From Candidatus Hydrogenedentota bacterium (GTDB taxonomy: Bacteria > Hydrogenedentota > Hydrogenedentia > Hydrogenedentales > SLHB01): a DNA stretch of 64,000 nt. Below, piece after piece: positions 40,835 to 48,567 of this stretch. A model generated the notes under the pieces. It was given only the letters and a program-made list of their open reading frames with translations, was not told where the DNA came from and ran no database searches. Each line of letters begins with the position of its first letter. Positions within the stretch are counted from its first letter, which is position 1. The DNA lies in assembly GCA_045863295.1 (NCBI GenBank), contig BTWA01000007.1, positions 136,469 to 200,468 of the forward strand. The letters are read 5' to 3'. A program made the translations under genes and the position numbers.

Positions 40835-42631
40835 TCAGTTCTCCTTCTCGATAACAAACGAATCCTTCACGGAGCCATCCACGCCAATCGCCTGCATGGT
40901 CAGTTTGTTGCCGTCAATTTCATAACGGTCGCACATGAGTCCGCCTCCTACCCAGGCTTCCACCAAGGCTGGTTTAGGACGGTCCGAATCGAACTCGCGC
41001 CCGGGTATCGAAATAGCGGTCACGTATACTGTTCCGTCTGCTGGGGAATCGACCACGGAACCACCTTTCACGGGATAGGTGCGTGTGTGCGTGTGAATGT
41101 GTCCCGTCAGCACCACATCCACATGGTATTCATCAAAGGCTGTCGCCCAATACTTCTGCAGTGCCGACGGTTGGTCTTCGCGTGTATACATTGGAAAATG
41201 GAACAGGGCGATTTTCCAGGTTGCCGTGCTTTGCGCCAGTTTCTCCCGCAACCATTCGCCTTGGAGTCCTGTCGGGCTCATCACGTCAAGCACAAAAAAC
41301 TCGGCGTTGCCGTAACGAAACGTATAGGCCCGCTCGGGTCGAATTCCCTCAGGCCCGTTTTCTGGCAATCCAAAGACTTCCAAGTATATATCCGGCGGAA
41401 AACCCAGTTGTGCATCATGATTGCCTATGGCCGGCATGACCGGTCGTGTGCGATACATTGCCTCGCCGTAGGCCAGTGTTTCGTCATAGTCCTGGCGCTC
41501 CATTCCCGTTCGCACAAGATCCCCGGAGATAAGACAGAAACTGGTGTCCGGATATGCCTTAAACGTATCGCGCAGCAGTTTGCCCCAGTGTTCGTTGCTG
41601 TGTGTGTCACTGCAATGAAAAAAGCTGAATTTCGCGGGATTGGCGGGCGCCGTGGTAAAGGCCGCGGGGGTGCTCCACAAGTCCTTTTCCCTCACCCCTG
41701 CTTGATACTCGTACGTCGTACCGGGCTCGAGTCCCGCAATCAATCCGGTATACCAGTGGCAATACCGGTCATTGGCCAGCATCCGGTCTTCCATTCTTAC
41801 CGGTGCAACATCGATTTCATGCTTCGTGCTGTCACCTTGCTTCCAGTAGCGAATCACGCCGTCGCTTACCGTGTCCTTGGTTCGCCAATTTACGGTTTGC
41901 GTTGTTTTTGGGTCGTCGCTCCACGTCAAATAGACTGGGCTCGGACGTTCCGTCGCGGGAAATTTTGTCTGGCGGAATCCACCAACCAGATGCGATTCCC
42001 TTCCGCGGCCGCGGATCGTCGTTAAAAGTTGTTGCCCCACTAAAGCAACTGGCACCTCGGTTAACACCAATTCTGTCCAATCGTTGTAGCACAGCGCGCC
42101 GACCTTGGTCTCCACGATAGGAAATCGATCCGGGGAAAGATTCGAAATGGTCACCTTTTTAGAGGAGTCTTTGGCGCCAACGGAAACCAGATAATGCGGC
42201 CGGTGATATTCGAAGCCGTTGATTCCCAATTCAACTTTTCCGGCAGGGAATTCCTTTTGCCATACTTCGTATTGCCAATCTTCCATGTTCCTGGCGGTCA
42301 GATCCGTTTTCTTGAATCCGGCCGGCTCAAGCCAGAAAGGAATTACTTCTTGTTTCACGTCACGTAGTATCGACACCACTACCGGCATGTCTGCTGTAAA
42401 TGACAGGTGTTTCGTCGCCAGCACAGCTAACTCGTCCGGTGTCAGCAACGTCATAACCTTCGCATTGTCCAGCGCGTACAACTCCTCCATGGGCATAGAC
42501 GCGTAGAACCGCGTGATTACGTTGTCCATTACCGTATCCACCGTATCGGCGGCCCGGGCAGTCAGAACGACCAGCAACGAGAGTACGCCTGCAATCAGGA
42601 CTTTTTTGACACTGTAGAAACCACACAACAT
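40835..42631 (-). CDS. Purple-acid-phosphatase-like metallophosphoesterase with FN3-like domain
   Basis: SDTH, GDLV, GNHD, FHFP, GHIH motifs; GLEPGTTYEY; RBS AAGGAG before ATG 42631. Confidence 0.88.
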   Translation of the reverse strand: MLCGFYSVKKVLIAGVLSLLVVLTARAADTVDTVMDNVITRFYASMPMEELYALDNAKVMTLLTPDELAVLATKHLSFTADMPVVVSILRDVKQEVIPFWLEPAGFKKTDLTARNMEDWQYEVWQKEFPAGKVELGINGFEYHRPHYLVSVGAKDSSKKVTISNLSPDRFPIVETKVGALCYNDWTELVLTEVPVALVGQQLLTTIRGRGRESHLVGGFRQTKFPATERPSPVYLTWSDDPKTTQTVNWRTKDTVSDGVIRYWKQGDSTKHEIDVAPVRMEDRMLANDRYCHWYTGLIAGLEPGTTYEYQAGVREKDLWSTPAAFTTAPANPAKFSFFHCSDTHSNEHWGKLLRDTFKAYPDTSFCLISGDLVRTGMERQDYDETLAYGEAMYRTRPVMPAIGNHDAQLGFPPDIYLEVFGLPENGPEGIRPERAYTFRYGNAEFFVLDVMSPTGLQGEWLREKLAQSTATWKIALFHFPMYTREDQPSALQKYWATAFDEYHVDVVLTGHIHTHTRTYPVKGGSVVDSPADGTVYVTAISIPGREFDSDRPKPALVEAWVGGGLMCDRYEIDGNKLTMQAIGVDGSVKDSFVIEKEN

Positions 42632-42744
42632 GTCATAACTCCTTGAGCGCGATGTTAGGGGTGCAATATGGGTTTCGCCCATGATCGATATCTTGCGGAC
42701 ACCATAAACGACGAAGCGCGTGCGGTTCTACCGAATTGATGGAA

Positions 42745-43557
42745 TCACCTGTCCGGGCTTTCGTGCAATCTCAGGAGCTCCGGTGCCCGATCAGTCTGAA
42801 GCCAGTCCACGCCGCATTCGAGCATACGAGTCCACACCGCCGGTATGTCTGCTTCATCCAATACTTTTGCCTGTACTTTTATCCCTAAAGCATGAAATCG
42901 GGCGCAGACATCCGGAGTGACTTCATTGTGATTGATTTCGACCGCCGAGGGCTTCCATTTCGCGACCCAATCTTCGATGCCGTAATCCGTATGCCATTTG
43001 GGCATAATTGGGATCTGCCCTTTGGAGAGTAACCGTACCTTTTCGAGTACTTCGACGCTGTCAAATACGACGACTTGGTTCGCCATGTCTGCATCAAGTA
43101 TCTCATGGACAATTAACTCCGGATCGATTGATTTGCAGTCCAGATAGAGATTTAGCCGGTTTCGCGCGATGGTCAGACATTCTTTCAGGGTCAGAATACG
43201 CTCGCCCTTGAACTGATCAGAAAAATGCGACCCGGCATCAAGCAACTTAATCTCGGCCAGAGTCAAATCGGAGACCGCCCCCGTGCCGTCAGTCTTGCCG
43301 TCTACCGTGCTGTCGTGAAACACGATGTGTTGGCCATCCTTCGTCAACCGGACATCCACTTCGGCCCATTCAATCCTTAGGTCAACGCAGCGGTCCAGCG
43401 CGGGCCGCGTATTCTCCGGCGCGTCCGACATGGCACCGCGATGGGCCATGACCTGAAAGCGCCTCGGTGGAGAAATGGGTTCAAAGAACTCGGCTGCTTT
43501 GGAAACGCTTGAAATGATAATCAAAAGGGCCAGCGAGGTGAACAAGTAGATACGCAT
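42745..43557 (-). CDS. Glycerophosphodiester phosphodiesterase family protein
   Basis: AHRGA...APENT; EVDVRLTKDG...FHD; GVD..QTDR. Confidence 0.92.
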   Translation of the reverse strand: MRIYLFTSLALLIIISSVSKAAEFFEPISPPRRFQVMAHRGAMSDAPENTRPALDRCVDLRIEWAEVDVRLTKDGQHIVFHDSTVDGKTDGTGAVSDLTLAEIKLLDAGSHFSDQFKGERILTLKECLTIARNRLNLYLDCKSIDPELIVHEILDADMANQVVVFDSVEVLEKVRLLSKGQIPIMPKWHTDYGIEDWVAKWKPSAVEINHNEVTPDVCARFHALGIKVQAKVLDEADIPAVWTRMLECGVDWLQTDRAPELLRLHESPDR

Positions 43558-43686
43558 GAGAACTCTTCCTTATGGATCCTGCACAAAAGGCATTCTTGCC
43601 ATTCGCGGGGATTCACTTGTCGCTGACGGTCGAGTGACGCAATCGTCTATTCTGGAGTTGCACCCTGATTGTGGCAGAATGAAGGC

Positions 43687-44616
43687 ATGTCTGCCAATGC
43701 GCTCGACCAGTTTCTCCATCACCTTACGACCGAACGTGGCTATTCGCCTCATACCGTCCGCGCTTACATGCAGGATATCGAACAATTCTGCGTGTACCTA
43801 GAGGAAGGTCCGGCTGGTCTCGACAAACCTGCGGAGGAACGGCCGCAACCCTCACTTTCTGTACTGCGCCGGGCGCAGCGGGTCGACGTGCGCGCTTATT
43901 TGGCCCATGTTCAAACGCACGGCGGCACGCCCAAAACCGCAGCGCGAAAACTCGCTTCGTTACGAGCGGCCTACCGATTCTTTATGCGCGTTGGCGAACT
44001 CGACATGAACCCCGCACAAAGTGTCAAATCGCCCAAGCTGCGGCGCGATCTGCCGGATGTACTCAGTATCCCGGAAGTTACCGCGTTACTGGAGGCACCG
44101 GACGCAGGCGAACCGCTTGGCGTCCGCGATCGCGCACTGTTGGAGACCCTCTACTCCAGCGGCATCCGCGCCGCGGAACTCGCCGGGCTCTCGTTGCGCG
44201 ACGTCGACATAGTCGGCGGCACGATCAAAGTACTGGGCAAAAGGCGAAAAGAGCGAATAGCCTACCTGGGCCGACCCGCCGGAGAAGCACTCACGGAATA
44301 CCTGCGAATCCGCGTTCAATTGGGCAATCCACGCCACGAACGGCTCTTCGTCAACTTCCGCGGCGGTCCACTGACGACTCGAAGTGTGCAACGGGTTGTC
44401 GAGAAATACGTTCTGCAAGTGCTGCCCATGCGAAAGGAAGTCTCGCCCCACACCCTTCGTCATACCTTTGCTACGCATATGCTTAACGCGGGGGCCGACT
44501 TACGTGTTGTCCAGGAACTCCTGGGGCACGAAAGCCTTTCCAGCACGCAAATCTACACCCATGTCAGCATCGACCGCCTGAAGGAAATCTATCGCGACAC
44601 CCATCCACATGCGTGA
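43687..44616 (+). CDS. xerC: Tyrosine recombinase XerC-like
   Basis: SPHTVRAY, RKLASLR, RDRALLETLYSSGIR, GKRRKER, HTLRHTFATH, LGHESLSSTQIYTH. Confidence 0.88.
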   Translation: MSANALDQFLHHLTTERGYSPHTVRAYMQDIEQFCVYLEEGPAGLDKPAEERPQPSLSVLRRAQRVDVRAYLAHVQTHGGTPKTAARKLASLRAAYRFFMRVGELDMNPAQSVKSPKLRRDLPDVLSIPEVTALLEAPDAGEPLGVRDRALLETLYSSGIRAAELAGLSLRDVDIVGGTIKVLGKRRKERIAYLGRPAGEALTEYLRIRVQLGNPRHERLFVNFRGGPLTTRSVQRVVEKYVLQVLPMRKEVSPHTLRHTFATHMLNAGADLRVVQELLGHESLSSTQIYTHVSIDRLKEIYRDTHPHA

Positions 44617-44646
44617 TGGGACTAGGGTACAGTTGTTAACTTACTG

Positions 44647-44676
44647 TTGACACGCCACCTTGACTTGTGCGATACT
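44647..44676 (+). promoter_or_regulatory. Sigma70 promoter of the retron cassette
   Basis: TTGACA (44647-52), 18-nt spacer containing an extended -10 TG, GATACT (44671-76). Confidence 0.6.
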
Positions 44677-44682
44677 ACGCAA

Positions 44683-45086
44683 GTACCCCAAGGTGTAGAC
44701 AATTCACAGGAGGGCAAACTTCAGTTTAGGGTCGACGCGATGTAGTAATCTCTGGGTCTGAACGTGGCCATGCTAAATGGTCGCCTCCTCCCACCAGGAG
44801 GTAGGTCCCCCGCCCGCGTGTCAGGATGTATGCCTGTTAGTCTCGTGGTATCTCCGGTGTGCTTGCGTGGCAAGTGACTCTGGTATTGACGTGCCACAGA
44901 ACTCGTAGCAAGTGTTGACAGGATACGCTGCGTGGACCTCATATAGCGCAAACAAATGTTTCGCTATCAGTTCATGAAGGACCGGTGAGTCACATTGTAG
45001 TGGCGAGCCGGGCGGCCTGAAGAACAATACCCAGAGAAGGGAGGTGAATCCATATGGATACGCAATCTGAAGTTCGCGTCGCCCCT
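44683..45086 (+). ncRNA. Putative retron msr-msd non-coding RNA, overlapping the start of the small ORF (boundaries approximate)
   Basis: Flanking complementary pairs 44749-57/45029-37 (9/9) and 44728-40/45074-86 (12/13); small hairpins 44766-82 and 44784-801; long interrupted stem 44803-44939; hairpin 44943-67; lies upstream of a retron RT. Confidence 0.65.
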
Positions 45087-45518
45087 GGCCAGCAAGCTGC
45101 AGTCGATAAGTTGGATGCCATGATCAAGTTGCTACGATCATCCGTCCACAAGGTGGAGCAGCGTGATGGCCAAGGCTGCGCAGAGCTGCGACTGGTTTTG
45201 GCTGAGGCCGAAGAGATCTTGGCAATACTGAAATCCGATCGGGCAGCCAATGCGATCGATTGGAAAAAGATTGGTCAAGTGCTCCGGTTTCTTTTGGACC
45301 TGTTGAAAGTGGTCTGTTCCTTTTATAACTGTGTATTCCCCAGATGGAGAGGTAATGGACACTGGGTTGATCATAAAGAAGATACGCGTAAGCGAGTCTC
45401 TGACACAGGACGAGCTTGCCACCGAACTGGATGTTACGCGAGCATATCTTTCCCAAGTGGAAAATGGTCGAAAACACTGCAGCTTAGACTTATTGCGCAA
45501 AGTCGCGCAGAGATTTGA
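45054..45518 (+). CDS. Small helical protein, putative retron effector/toxin (3' end uncertain, overlaps HTH gene)
   Basis: Strong SD GGGAGGTGA (45039-47); first ~90 aa helical with amphipathic IDWKKIGQVLRFLLDLLKVV; the last 164 nt overlap the HTH ORF. Confidence 0.55.
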   Translation: MDTQSEVRVAPGQQAAVDKLDAMIKLLRSSVHKVEQRDGQGCAELRLVLAEAEEILAILKSDRAANAIDWKKIGQVLRFLLDLLKVVCSFYNCVFPRWRGNGHWVDHKEDTRKRVSDTGRACHRTGCYASISFPSGKWSKTLQLRLIAQSRAEI

Positions 45519-45657
45519 TATTCCCATTGCTCTATTGCTGGCGTGGGAAGATGATGCAAGTGTCGATGCGGAGTTAAACGGGAGGTTACAACGGTTATTC
45601 ATGGAGATTCTTTCCGCAAGAATTGCTAAGACCCAGTCTCCCAGGCCCACTGGCTGA
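45355..45657 (+). CDS. XRE-family helix-turn-helix protein (retron-associated)
   Basis: IKKIR....LTQDELA..LDVTRAYLSQVENG motif; purine-rich GGAGAGG just upstream; 11 nt upstream of the RT start. Confidence 0.88.
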   Translation: MDTGLIIKKIRVSESLTQDELATELDVTRAYLSQVENGRKHCSLDLLRKVAQRFDIPIALLLAWEDDASVDAELNGRLQRLFMEILSARIAKTQSPRPTG

Positions 45658-45668
45658 ATTAGGCCGTC

Positions 45669-46604
45669 ATGAAGGGGGCTAAATCTGACGCACTTGAAAT
45701 CCGATCCATGGCGCACCTTGCACTTTGCTTAGGCATAAGCCCGGCAGCGCTGCATGATCTGCTCGCTAATCCTGACAGCTTGTATAGAACATGGTCACAG
45801 ACGAAGAAAGGTAAGAAACGGGACTATTGTGAGCCGTTGGAGCCCTTGAAAACTGCACTGAGGAGTCTCAATGCGAGACTTCAAAAAGTAAAGCTCCCGC
45901 CATATTTCTATGGTGGAATTCGTGGCCGGTCGAATATTGACAATGCTAAGGCGCATGGCCCGAATCGCACACTTCTTAAGGCTGATATAAAGGATTTCTT
46001 TCCGAGTATAGATCGCCAAAGGGTACAAGTGATGTTCGAGAAAAAGTTGCGCTGTTCAGGTGAAGTTGCAAGAGCGATTTCTATTCTCTGTACCCATGAA
46101 GACCGGCTTCCCCAAGGGGCGCCAACGAGTACGATGATTGCGAATTTGGTAGTCGAGCACCTTGCTTTTAGACTGCATCGTCTTGCTCAATTCCATGGGG
46201 CCACCTTTACACAATTTGTTGACGATATCTCCATTTCGGGACCAAGCCATCTTATTCAACTTGAAGACCTCGTCGCTCGTATAATCGAAGAGGAGGGATT
46301 CACTTGCCATCCTCAGAAGCTCTGTACTTTAGGGAAATCCTCTGAGCAAGTGATCACGGGGGTAAGAGTGGATCATGGTTTAGATGTACCTCTGGAAAAA
46401 CTATCAGATGTAAGGTCAGAAATAGAAGAGCTAGCACATCTCAATTCTTCGGACGATGAACTGTACAGAAAGTCGATTCGGTCCATTGTGGGCAGAATCG
46501 CATACATTGGAAGTCTGAATAAGGGTTTGGGAAAACAACTTTCGTGTCGATTAAACGAAGTACTTGGAGACGCTGGTTTATCTGGACAAGTCAATCGAGC
46601 TTAG
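45669..46604 (+). CDS. Retron-type reverse transcriptase
   Basis: KKGKKR..P..LK; region X NAKAH (45942-56); DIKDFFPSI; LPQGAPTS..IAN; catalytic FVDD (46215-26); region Y ITG (46353-61); 311 aa with no maturase or endonuclease domain. Confidence 0.9.
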   Translation: MKGAKSDALEIRSMAHLALCLGISPAALHDLLANPDSLYRTWSQTKKGKKRDYCEPLEPLKTALRSLNARLQKVKLPPYFYGGIRGRSNIDNAKAHGPNRTLLKADIKDFFPSIDRQRVQVMFEKKLRCSGEVARAISILCTHEDRLPQGAPTSTMIANLVVEHLAFRLHRLAQFHGATFTQFVDDISISGPSHLIQLEDLVARIIEEEGFTCHPQKLCTLGKSSEQVITGVRVDHGLDVPLEKLSDVRSEIEELAHLNSSDDELYRKSIRSIVGRIAYIGSLNKGLGKQLSCRLNEVLGDAGLSGQVNRA

Positions 46605-46873
46605 CAATTACAAATCAAAATCGAATTGTCATGGCTGCCTTCTACATTCCATTGGTGTAACGATAGCCGCACTCCACGAGAGCACTTTCGAGATTTAAAG
46701 TCCTTTACGGTAGATACAATTGTTCTAGTTGCTTCAACCAATGCGGGCAATACTTGCATAGGCGATATATCCACGATCAGTCTACCAGTCGAAAAGTGTA
46801 CAATCTCGTTCCCAAATAACATACCATAGTGCCCGAAGCATTCGGCATTCTGTGCAACCTTGGACTAATGTAG

Positions 46874-48076
46874 ATGCAAGTAGAAATAATAATGATAGGA
46901 ACCGAGCTTCTTCTCGGCCAGATCGTAGATACCAACGCTTCTATGATGGGTCGGCATCTTGCTGATAACGGCATTCCTATCTATCTGAAGACTACGGTTG
47001 GAGACAACAAAAACCGCATCGTAAAAGTACTGGAATCGGCGTTAAGCCGCGCCGACGTGGTGCTCACGTCCGGCGGCCTTGGCCCTACGGAAGACGACCT
47101 CACACGAGAAGCCGTGGCGGAGGTCTTTGGGGTACCGCTCGAATACCACGAGCATCTTTACGACGAATTAGTCCGGCGCTTTTCAAAGCTGTCCCGCAAC
47201 ATCACTCCCAACAATAAGAAGCAGGCATATGCGCCGCAGGGTGCCACAATCTTGCCCAATCCGAACGGAACCGCGCCGGGGTTTCGGTGCGGCGATTCCC
47301 GCGGTGAAATCGTCTGTATGCCCGGGGTGCCCTTCGAATTGGAACCGATGCTGTGCGACCAGGTAATTCCGCACATCTGCAATACTTTTGGCGTAAAAGG
47401 GCTGATGCACTCGAGGGTACTGAAAGTGTGCGGCGTCGGCGAATCCAGAGTGGATGCGGCCATGGGCGACCTCATGGCCACACTGGAGAACCCCACAATT
47501 GGGGTTCTGGCCAGCCCGGAATGGGTTCGTATCCGCATCACGGCGCGGGCCGAAACAGTCGAGGAGGCGGAAGCCCGGATTGCTCCCGTGGAAGCGGCTG
47601 TAAGGGAACGTCTACCCGGGCTCATTATGGGGACCGGAGATGATACTTTGGAGGCCGTAGTAGAATCGCTCCTTGTTGAAAAAGGCTGGACCATAGCCAC
47701 GGCAGAAACCATGACGTCCGGCATGATCGCCCAGCGATTGACCGCAGCCGGCTCCAGGCAATTCCTGGGAGGTGAGAACCTTCCCATGGCGGCGTTCAAG
47801 GGCCGCGCAACCTCTGAGCAAGCCTTGCAGTGGGCGTGTCAGACGCGTGACCGCTTTGGCGCGGCCTGTGCGCTCGCCGTACTGGCCAACCCTGAAGATC
47901 GGCGTTTGCTTGTCGCATGGGTGTGTCCAGAGGGGCAAACCCTTATGGAGGCAGGGTTTGGGCGCATTACGCCAGTATTTCAGCTGCGTGCATGCACCCA
48001 TGCGCTGGAACATGTTCGTAGGTCCATTCTGGGAGTAGTGGATCCGTTTGCGGAGCCTACCTCCAAGAACATTTAA
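46874..48076 (+). CDS. cinA: CinA family protein (MoCF-binding-like N-domain + degenerate PncC domain)
   Basis: IGTELLLGQIVDTN; VGDN; GGLGPTEDDLT; NPNGTAPG; MPGVP.E; GVGES. Confidence 0.88.
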   Translation: MQVEIIMIGTELLLGQIVDTNASMMGRHLADNGIPIYLKTTVGDNKNRIVKVLESALSRADVVLTSGGLGPTEDDLTREAVAEVFGVPLEYHEHLYDELVRRFSKLSRNITPNNKKQAYAPQGATILPNPNGTAPGFRCGDSRGEIVCMPGVPFELEPMLCDQVIPHICNTFGVKGLMHSRVLKVCGVGESRVDAAMGDLMATLENPTIGVLASPEWVRIRITARAETVEEAEARIAPVEAAVRERLPGLIMGTGDDTLEAVVESLLVEKGWTIATAETMTSGMIAQRLTAAGSRQFLGGENLPMAAFKGRATSEQALQWACQTRDRFGAACALAVLANPEDRRLLVAWVCPEGQTLMEAGFGRITPVFQLRACTHALEHVRRSILGVVDPFAEPTSKNI

Positions 48077-48102
48077 CCGGCCTGCGGGTCCCAAGGAAAC
48101 AT

Positions 48103-48131
48103 TTGACAGGTTTAGGACCGTGTGCTAGACT
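48103..48131 (+). promoter_or_regulatory. Sigma70 promoter
   Basis: TTGACA (48103-08), 17-nt spacer, extended -10 TG-C-TAGACT (TAGACT at 48126-31). Confidence 0.7.
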
Positions 48132-48183
48132 GCTTTCGTTCCCGCAACATCTGTGGTGGTAAGCGGTTAGCCCCAGGGAGGAT

Positions 48184-48567
48184 ATGCCAGTGTTGAAAAA
48201 GTGCAAGGCTCTCGTGGCCATCCTGTTGATCGCGGTGGTCGCATTGGCATCAATGCCGCTGGGCGCCCAGTCCACTTACGATCCCGACGACATGATTACC
48301 CCGCCCACGGGCTTCGAGAAATCGCTGACCAAACTCGGTCGCGGCTTCTCGAACATCCTCCTTGGCTGGGCGGAGATTCCCGTAACCTTCGACAAAAAGC
48401 TCAAGGAAGGTAAGCCTCTCGGTTATTTGGTTGGCGTTGTGCCCGTGTTGGGCACGGCCCGCGCGGTGATGCGCACGGCCACTGGCGTCTTTGAAGTCAC
48501 CACCTTCGTATGGTCGGATAAAGAAGTCAATTACGACGCCATCCTTGAGCCGGAATACATTTTCTAA
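48184..48567 (+). CDS. Exosortase-system-associated protein, TIGR04073-like
   Basis: KLGRGFSNILLGWAEIP...R...GVFEVTTF...EPEYIF pattern; RBS GGGAGG. Confidence 0.75.
   Translation: MPVLKKCKALVAILLIAVVALASMPLGAQSTYDPDDMITPPTGFEKSLTKLGRGFSNILLGWAEIPVTFDKKLKEGKPLGYLVGVVPVLGTARAVMRTATGVFEVTTFVWSDKEVNYDAILEPEYIF

Follow-up and report, generated by a model that had tools for sequence, protein, structure and literature searches.

Introduction

Type VI retrons are, to our knowledge, the one retron type with a toxin gene inside the RNA that serves for reverse transcription. The two studied examples differ: Retron-Vpa2 is described as a translational lock opened by multicopy single-stranded DNA (msDNA), and Retron-Sen3 as a system in which the toxin is present and restrained by a helix-turn-helix (HTH) protein. 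For Retron-Vpa2, a Type VI retron of Vibrio parahaemolyticus, a preprint reports a hybrid RNA (hyRNA) and a small protein, SP, that is toxic and translationally repressed; msDNA derepresses SP even in trans, and a conserved 7-nt direct repeat was proposed as the docking site (Zhang et al., bioRxiv 10.1101/2025.10.22.683967). For Retron-Sen3, the basal stem of the RNA includes the ribosome-binding site (RBS) of SP, a conserved RNA scaffold takes in the SP coding region, and SP is made constitutively and neutralised by HTH (Garcia-Rodriguez et al., bioRxiv 10.64898/2026.04.27.721009). Here we describe a locus of this kind in a window of 64,000 nt from a Candidatus Hydrogenedentota bacterium (GCA_045863295.1, contig BTWA01000007.1, 136,469-200,468, forward strand); all positions below are those of the window. 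The locus is predicted to be a Type VI retron, an anti-phage defence operon with a promoter, a leader, a structured RNA (~370 nt), and the genes of a toxin-like SP, HTH, and a reverse transcriptase (RT).

An earlier note on this DNA had proposed that the 5′ arm of the noncoding RNA pairs around and inside the start of the SP open reading frame (ORF) and locks its translation. Of the five pairings that it claimed, two belong to a conserved structure, a third is peculiar to this locus, and two are unsupported. The observation is thus confirmed in part, and its interpretation as a lock is supported in part. The structure itself is real and conserved, in a new instance of a recently described kind.

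Two Conserved Helices around the SP Start

All the stretches named in the earlier note are present and complementary as claimed (sequence reading and repeat search), and two of the pairings are long-range helices. The inner helix (44749-57:45029-37, complementary at 9/9 positions) has pair probabilities of 0.86-1.0 in the fold of 44683-45113. The outer helix (44728-40:45074-86, 12/13 complementary) joins the leader to SP codons 7-11 and has probabilities of 0.88-1.0 at 12 of its 13 positions. Both are also present in the minimum free energy (MFE) fold, and both recur in relatives. Chance was judged by setting the leader 44683-44760 against 45020-45100 shuffled 2000 times. Watson-Crick helices of at least 9 bp, like the inner one, had P = 0.012, and a 13-mer with one mismatch, like the outer one, had P = 0.0015. 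Furthermore, two or more helices of at least 8 bp had P = 0.0005, and three were found in the locus.

As predicted from the sequence, the inner helix is the terminal repeat of the retron, with an a1-like 5′ arm and an a2-like 3′ arm, and the leader strand and the far side of the RNA form a long, interrupted basal stem. The two helices close the Shine-Dalgarno sequence (SD) and the AUG of SP into a 36-nt loop, which faces an 8-nt spacer on the other strand.

Relatives of the locus were scarce close to home. A scan of the genome contigs with the single RT protein gave no relative. In this genome and 60 related genomes, the RTs found beyond this locus were 31-35% identical, and none of them had the Type VI layout; the nearest RTs in a large protein collection were 47-57% identical. 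The related loci were obtained via profile scans alone, from metagenome-assembled genomes and metagenomes, and the hosts of the clade are environmental metagenome-assembled genomes (Nitrospirales, Acidobacteriota, Phycisphaeraceae, and others). The gene order together with an SP homologue (tblastn) was found in L009, L010 (= L090), L013, L089, and L091, and similar ORFs were recognised by eye in further loci.

Helix searches and separate MFE folds for each locus show one leader segment paired with the SP coding region in these loci, at about +11 to +37. A second leader segment pairs at or just before the SD; it lies 5-9 nt downstream of the first in the near clade, and the spacing between the arms is 12-18 nt in most of the more distant loci and 69 nt in L112. 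The MFE folds of single loci had the helix between leader and coding region in 11/11 cases, and one that involves or adjoins the SD in 10/11. Among the more distant or repeated loci, both helices were clear in 6/10 (MFE). Over all the tabulated loci, an equivalent of the outer helix was found in 17/17, with its 3′ arm always at +11 to +37. This arm has 16 distinct sequences among the 17 loci with a mean pairwise identity of 0.25, which is the random level, and each of them complements its own leader. Because the helix of leader and SP codons is kept despite complete sequence turnover, both arms should lie on one RNA. In addition, G-U pairs are tolerated in the helices, which places the constraint at the level of RNA.

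For comparison with chance, each leader was paired against the targets of other loci. Watson-Crick helices of at least 9 bp were found for the outer helix in 7/13 self pairs versus 3/156 cross-locus pairs, and for the inner helix in 7/13 versus 5/156. This contiguous-helix test was substituted for RNAduplex energies of leader and target, which were tried and rejected as uninformative, the search space being too large (the self pair was best in its column in 4/13 cases for the outer helix and in 3/13 for the inner helix). RNAalifold, run on the unedited MAFFT alignment of the four closest loci, recovered the long-range outer pairing as well as a pairing of a1 with the SD, and 16 of its 37 predicted pairs survive changes on both strands. 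MAFFT put the arms out of register both with flanks and with the ends flush at the helix (755 columns); the covariation thus rests on scripts and RNAalifold.

These results also bear on whether the repeats act on DNA, for instance as a site for the XerC-like recombinase (43669-44616), or are due to chance. A tyrosine recombinase gene does lie directly upstream, and the retron is a low-GC insert. However, the helices accompany the retron at other upstream contexts (L012 and L011 have unrelated upstream ORFs), the tolerated G-U pairs are relevant to RNA only, and the helices are far beyond chance. We regard this explanation as effectively refuted.

Pairings without Structural Support

The earlier note had added that the outer helix, 44717-24:45067-74, and ATTCAC/GTGAAT (44702-07:45044-49) cross one another and hence form no single stem, and this geometry is correct. 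In a dynamic version of its proposal, the crossing pairings, together with an anti-SD CCTCCC (44787-92:45039-44), would toggle the RBS as alternative conformers or as a pseudoknot. That role found no support. The linkers between the arms are 3 nt and 0 nt, so the crossing pairings could not coexist as a pseudoknot, and the helix geometry points to mutually exclusive alternatives instead. Complementarity was confirmed in all three cases, but each pairing had a probability of 0.00 in every fold and stayed at 0.0 with all longer 3′ ends.

The pairing 44717-24:45067-74 speaks for such a switch in that it is unusual for chance, as the shuffles with two or more helices of at least 8 bp indicate. Its 8-bp core sits within a longer inverted repeat (44714-27/45064-77, 12/14), and the constrained windows give a helix of at least 8 bp in just 3/272 cross-locus pairs. 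However, it crosses the 13-bp helix, with position 45074 common to both, and it is confined to this locus: the corresponding helix has at most 6 bp in the 16 other loci, so that 0/16 hold an equivalent above 6 bp. The pairing ATTCAC/GTGAAT is what chance would give, since a helix of at least 6 bp occurs at least once in 59% of the shuffles. Among cross-locus pairs, 15/272 have a helix of 6 bp or more, and this pairing is not conserved.

The pairing of CCTCCC with the SD is at chance level as well. The hairpin CCTCCT/AGGAGG (44784-801), which the earlier note had recognised beside it, is a real local hairpin with a probability of 0.48-0.64, and its stem is altered on both strands in the three closest loci, L009, L010, and L091 (alignment columns 65-69:79-83). 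CCTCCC is one strand of this conserved hairpin; it is anti-SD-like solely in this locus and partly in L091, and not so in L009 or L010. Pairings of the leader with the SD were no better than the cross-locus background over the loci. In the RNAalifold alignment, the a1 arm opens with a CU-rich tract that falls on the SD columns. Any anti-SD of this locus would be a1 rather than CCTCCC. Overall, we hold a switch built from these three pairings to be very improbable.

A Probable Common Transcript of the RNA and SP

The proposal that the noncoding RNA and the effector message form one hybrid transcript, already published for Retron-Vpa2 and Retron-Sen3, gained indirect support from the conserved helix of leader and codons, from an upstream promoter, and from the lack of a terminator. 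The promoter at 44647-76 is the sole promoter-like site within 44500-46800 and predicts a transcript start at about 44683. In 9/17 loci, this one included, 27-60 nt separate the outer 5′ arm from the end of an upstream promoter whose -35 hexamer is a perfect TTGACA. In addition, no terminator-like site was found between the RNA and the SP ORF.

In metatranscriptomes, library X10 holds identical contigs for 44994-45147, 45139-45292, and 45466-45663. The first of them spans the a2 arm, the SD, and the AUG, and is weak evidence, as contigs prove no single RNA and DNA may be present. X10 has no contig over 44683-44993, and X21 and X20 cover parts of the HTH and RT genes only; such missing cover is not evidence.

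Access to the SP Start Site

The earlier note had also claimed that the fold hides the RBS. This is partly supported: among the 14 loci with a defined inner helix, the 3′ arm contains the SD in 9, and ends just upstream of it in 5, this locus included. Here, the SD lies in neither of the conserved helices. Across the loci, the upstream RNA makes the region -16..+13 costlier to open; the added energy averages 5.2 kcal/mol and exceeds 2 kcal/mol in 13/17. The bases of the SD at this locus have unpaired probabilities of 0.01-0.99. We infer that a loop of 36 nt with tied ends could not wrap into the channel of the 30S subunit, and the helices would then act as a steric clamp.

The leader has no stable pairing with the end of SP in folds ending at 45360 and 45520; it pairs with codons 7-11 instead. 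We found no conserved sequence feature by which msDNA or RT would open the clamp. An 8-nt direct repeat (44921-28/45056-63) is paired in the MFE fold and not in a loop, and repeats of at least 8 nt occur in 22/156 cross-locus pairs, which makes it a weak candidate. Between the windows -130..-30 and -18..+3, no repeat above the shuffles was found in 15/17 loci.

L014 (-71, -18) and L104 (-69, -15) have an exact duplicate of 11-13 nt of the SD block about 50 nt upstream, which 0/500 shuffles match. It could be a decoy SD, or the start codon could have been chosen wrongly there. Furthermore, an 11-nt inverted repeat (10/11; 45357-67/45631-41) flanks the HTH gene, with one copy at the start codon and the other shortly before the region where ribosomes bind for RT, and it shares a hexamer with the a1/a2 arms. 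The a2 arm could in principle pair with the start of HTH, where CTGGGT recurs at 45362-67, but this was rejected: such a pairing is not conserved, and its self distribution equals the cross distribution.

SP and HTH Proteins

SP has a conserved core of ~95 residues (to ~45340) in an alignment of 12 sequences. The AlphaFold model built on these 12 sequences has helices at 11-36, 42-63, and 70-94 with a predicted local distance difference test (pLDDT) of 73-91 by block, and a tail at 98-134 with pLDDT <50. The tails vary in length and are not conserved. No stop interrupts the SP frame before the HTH start, and SP overlaps the HTH gene by 34-211 nt, in another frame, in 12 of the 14 loci in which both genes were read (this one, L009, L010, L012, L013, L014, L089, L091, L092, L093, L095, and L099; L098 and L102 do not overlap). 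This overlap suggests translational coupling of both genes.

HTH and the SP core were modelled as a complex, which scored 0.73 (runs 0.02, 0.73, and 0.73) against 0.05 for the best of three controls. The mark of 0.73 is attained by 116/157 solved complexes and by 2/215 mismatched pairs, a rough calibration because own alignments were used here. The contact agreement between runs is at least 4%, and the pLDDT of the partners is at least 49. In the model, HTH contacts SP through its residues 55-93, and the interface connects the helix behind the HTH domain (~70-93) with SP helices 2 and 3. Interface residues include 77-85 of HTH and 48-55 and 80-84 of SP. The model suggests that HTH binds SP as antitoxin, as was reported for Retron-Sen3. 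Post-translational control as in Sen3 is therefore also likely, and together with the gene overlap the contact points to a toxin-antitoxin relation of the Sen3 kind that is layered on the RNA clamp.

Two relatives have no HTH gene between an SP-like ORF and RT. L096 has an SP-like ORF at 496-906 followed by RT from 894, and L011 has an ORF at 2036-2356 followed by RT from 2405.

How SP May Be Restrained

We consider it probable, at roughly 0.6, that both controls exist here, so that the clamp keeps SP translation low and any ribosome passing it produces HTH as well. A single hybrid RNA would comprise the structured RNA and the message of SP. The clamp would hold the ends of the ribosome-landing segment together and, with the weak local hairpin, keep SP translation low, a repression that was measured for Vpa2. 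A translating ribosome would have to unwind the outer helix and would then cross the HTH start. Because the SP and HTH genes overlap, HTH would be made along with SP, and it may bind SP as antitoxin through the modelled contact. On infection, SP could be released by msDNA, by RNase H cutting of the template, or by loss of the HTH restraint.

Several points weigh against this model. In this locus, the SD and the AUG lie outside both conserved helices, in the 36-nt loop with a weak local hairpin. The upstream RNA adds just 1.3 kcal/mol to the opening of -16..+13 (12.0 versus 10.7), and the A and U of the AUG have unpaired probabilities of 1.0; a lock by secondary structure alone would thus be weak here, and the steric clamp is itself inferred. 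With longer 3′ ends the inner helix keeps a probability of 0.94-0.97, but the outer helix gives 0.72, 0.88, and 0.10 for fold ends at 45360, 45520, and 45670, the last being the lowest. The whole 418-nt fold is modestly better than its shuffles (z = -2.2), 3/100 of which are equally good. The helices of the 17 loci were hand-picked from helix searches, and their controls were cross-locus swaps. One of the three HTH-SP complex runs scored 0.02. Furthermore, SP of Sen3 is constitutive though its RBS lies in the basal stem, so that sequestration need not mean repression.

Some of these points would favour a purely structural role of the helices, as an extended basal stem that RT, and perhaps HTH, would need for priming, for assembly of the complex, or for stability of the RNA. 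SP would then be constitutive and restrained by HTH, and the enclosure of its start site would be a by-product rather than a lock. The small energy added by the upstream RNA and the predicted unpaired AUG fit such a role, as do the HTH-SP contact model, within its run and pLDDT caveats, and an SP/HTH overlap like that of coupled toxin-antitoxin pairs. The constitutive SP of Sen3, despite an RBS in the basal stem, is a precedent (10.64898/2026.04.27.721009). However, a need for priming leaves the second helix at SP codons 7-11 unexplained in 17/17 loci. In canonical retrons, the terminal repeat alone suffices for priming. In addition, the SD is inside the inner helix in 9/14 loci, the upstream RNA raises the opening energy by 5.2 kcal/mol on average, and translational repression of SP was measured in Vpa2 (10.1101/2025.10.22.683967). 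We therefore hold a purely structural role to be possible but clearly the less probable explanation.

The outer helix may also make two uses of one RNA mutually exclusive, and RNase H cutting after pairing with RT-made DNA might free the SP-HTH message. In the closed state, the basal stem would present the template to RT, and the ribosome could not load. In the open state, a ribosome past codon 7 would melt the stem and destroy the priming structure. DNA made by RT, in cis or from another copy, would pair with the template, and RNase H would cut the RNA between the strands of the clamp; the severed lock would be a weak two-piece duplex, from which the SP-HTH message would be freed. We arrive at this scheme from the helix geometry and from the trans-activation that the Vpa2 preprint reports, and we think it rather unlikely. 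If it is true, severing accounts for the way msDNA switches on translation without a docking motif.

The model with both controls is open to a direct test. The 13-bp target lies in a poorly conserved part of the protein, and it can be mutated to ask whether RNA structure, protein binding, or both restrain the putative toxin. As the concept is already in print, the value of the locus is that of a well-defined test case.

Features of the Locus

The RNA lies in a gap of 437 nt, which separates the gene of the XerC-like recombinase (43669-44616) from a run of three + strand genes (table 1). Among 56 PADLOC RT models, RT_VI was the top match of the reverse transcriptase (8.1e-71, 236.5 bits) and RT_II-A the runner-up (9.1e-52); the genome-wide PADLOC search scores the same RT at 7.0e-70 for RT_VI. 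The gene order is that of Type VI, with the SP ORF upstream of HTH and HTH (ending at 45657) directly upstream of RT (45669). The RNA agrees with this type as well: the inner helix encloses 289 nt of stem-loops upstream of SP and is conserved in relatives. SP matched no Pfam or PADLOC family, and Rfam had no match with E up to 1 anywhere in 43500-47500.

Table 1. Positions of Genes and RNA Features in the Window
Feature	Positions	Strand	Remarks
Sigma-70-like promoter	44647-44676	+	-35 at 44647-52, 18-nt spacer with TG, -10 at 44671-76; 10/12 matches
5′ arm of 6-bp pairing (partner 45044-49)	44702-44707	+	Chance level
5′ arm of alternative pairing (partner 45067-74)	44717-44724	+	Locus-specific, unsupported as structure
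Outer helix, 5′ arm (leader)	44728-44740	+	Pairs with 45074-86
Inner helix, 5′ arm (a1-like terminal repeat)	44749-44757	+	Starts with CU-rich tract
Two short stem-loops after a1	44766-82 and 44783-802	+	MFE, probability 0.48-0.64; the second has CCTCCT/AGGAGG and CCTCCC
Long interrupted hairpin, candidate template (msd) region	44803-44939	+	MFE; assigned by analogy with the internal stem-loop of Retron-Sen3 and Retron-Vpa2
8-nt direct repeat of 45056-63 (just past the AUG)	44921-44928	+	Lone Vpa2-style candidate for msd and start region, weak
Two more stem-loops	44943-67 and 44970-45025	+	MFE; alignment pairs at columns 234-238:251-255 and 272-276:297-301
Inner helix, 3′ arm (a2-like)	45029-45037	+	Ends 1 nt before the SD
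SP start region	45039-45068	+	SD 45039-44, AUG 45054-56, weak local hairpin 45040-68
SP ORF, 154 codons	45054-45518	+	Strong SD; tail overlaps HTH gene in another frame
Outer helix, 3′ arm (SP codons 7-11)	45074-45086	+	In the least conserved, N-terminal part of SP
HTH protein, Cro/C1 type, 100 residues	45355-45657	+	Pfam HTH_3 3.2e-13; PADLOC HTH_VI 2.1e-19
Retron reverse transcriptase, 311 residues	45669-46604	+	Pfam RVT_1 8.5e-14; PADLOC RT_VI 8.1e-71

Two stretches of the RNA are conserved in sequence. A block at ~44966-82 (alignment columns ~395-410), in the 3′ part of the RNA and within the stem-loops of 44943-45025, is conserved in 8 aligned loci while the remainder has diverged. In addition, a short motif directly after the a1 arm is conserved across 4-8 aligned loci. 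Both are candidates for an RT recognition or priming site.

The guanine-cytosine (GC) content of the retron is 0.42-0.49, versus 0.55-0.62 in the flanks (profile over 42500-48500), and the retron is thus a low-GC insert. In this it resembles a horizontally acquired island. Its neighbours are the XerC-like tyrosine recombinase gene on one side and, on the other, an ORF of 400 residues (46874-48076), which we take to be CinA-like from its N-terminal sequence. A second retron-type RT is encoded in the same genome (contig C53, L008:1396-2256) and is of another type (PADLOC RT_XIII 2e-79, RT_X 7.6e-72); the ORFs beside it matched no PADLOC family. For comparison with a studied Type VI retron, a plasmid search was made, and its top enterobacterial match had an RT and a cold-shock protein; we presumed it to be another retron type and did not use it.

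Comparison with Known Systems

The fold of the RNA resembles the a1/a2 organisation of canonical msr-msd RNAs, in that the inner helix encloses 289 nt, in which a long hairpin comes after short stem-loops. It differs from them in having no Rfam match at E up to 1 and in the second helix, which extends into a protein-coding region. In toxin mRNAs of the hok/sok type, long-range pairing of the 5′ end with a distant segment blocks the start region up to the time when the RNA is processed. The fold-back pairing described here is like theirs, by analogy only: it involves no antisense RNA, is unrelated in sequence, and has the 5′ coding region as its partner, in an RNA that is also a template for RT.

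The comparison with the two Type VI retrons extends as far as the accessible parts of the preprints. With Retron-Sen3 and the cl2075 lineage, the locus shares an RNA within ~280-300 nt of the SP start with terminal inverted repeats. As in Sen3, the RBS of SP is at the basal stem, the SP coding region belongs to the conserved RNA scaffold, and HTH is modelled to bind SP. However, the segment that directly precedes the 5′ repeat folds into a local stem-loop in Sen3, which also has a long-range IR1-IR2 pairing to a site beyond the stop codon of SP. In the present locus, that segment is paired with SP codons instead, and SP and HTH overlap with no intergenic spacer. Furthermore, this clade comes from environmental metagenome-assembled genomes and not from Proteobacteria.

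Retron-Vpa2 has the same order of structured RNA, small toxic protein, HTH, and RT, with SP of this locus being putatively toxic. In Vpa2, one structured transcript carries both the RNA and the coding sequence of SP, whose start region is embedded in structure, and the same may hold here; SP of both has a hydrophobic C-terminal helix. The translational lock that the earlier note had read from the sequence is a rediscovery of the model published for Vpa2, and the concept is not new. Unlike in Vpa2, the leader pairs here with SP codons 7-11, the SD and the AUG are looped between two long-range helices, and the SP core of ~95 residues belongs to a gene that overlaps HTH. The 7-nt direct repeat proposed for docking has no convincing counterpart in this locus, a comparison made without the letters of the published motif. 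The environmental clade adds a third arrangement to the two that have been studied, and the comparison of loci supports it cleanly: the ribosome-landing site is flanked by a pair of helices, codons of the putative toxin supply an arm of one, and the gene of this toxin overlaps that of its likely antitoxin.

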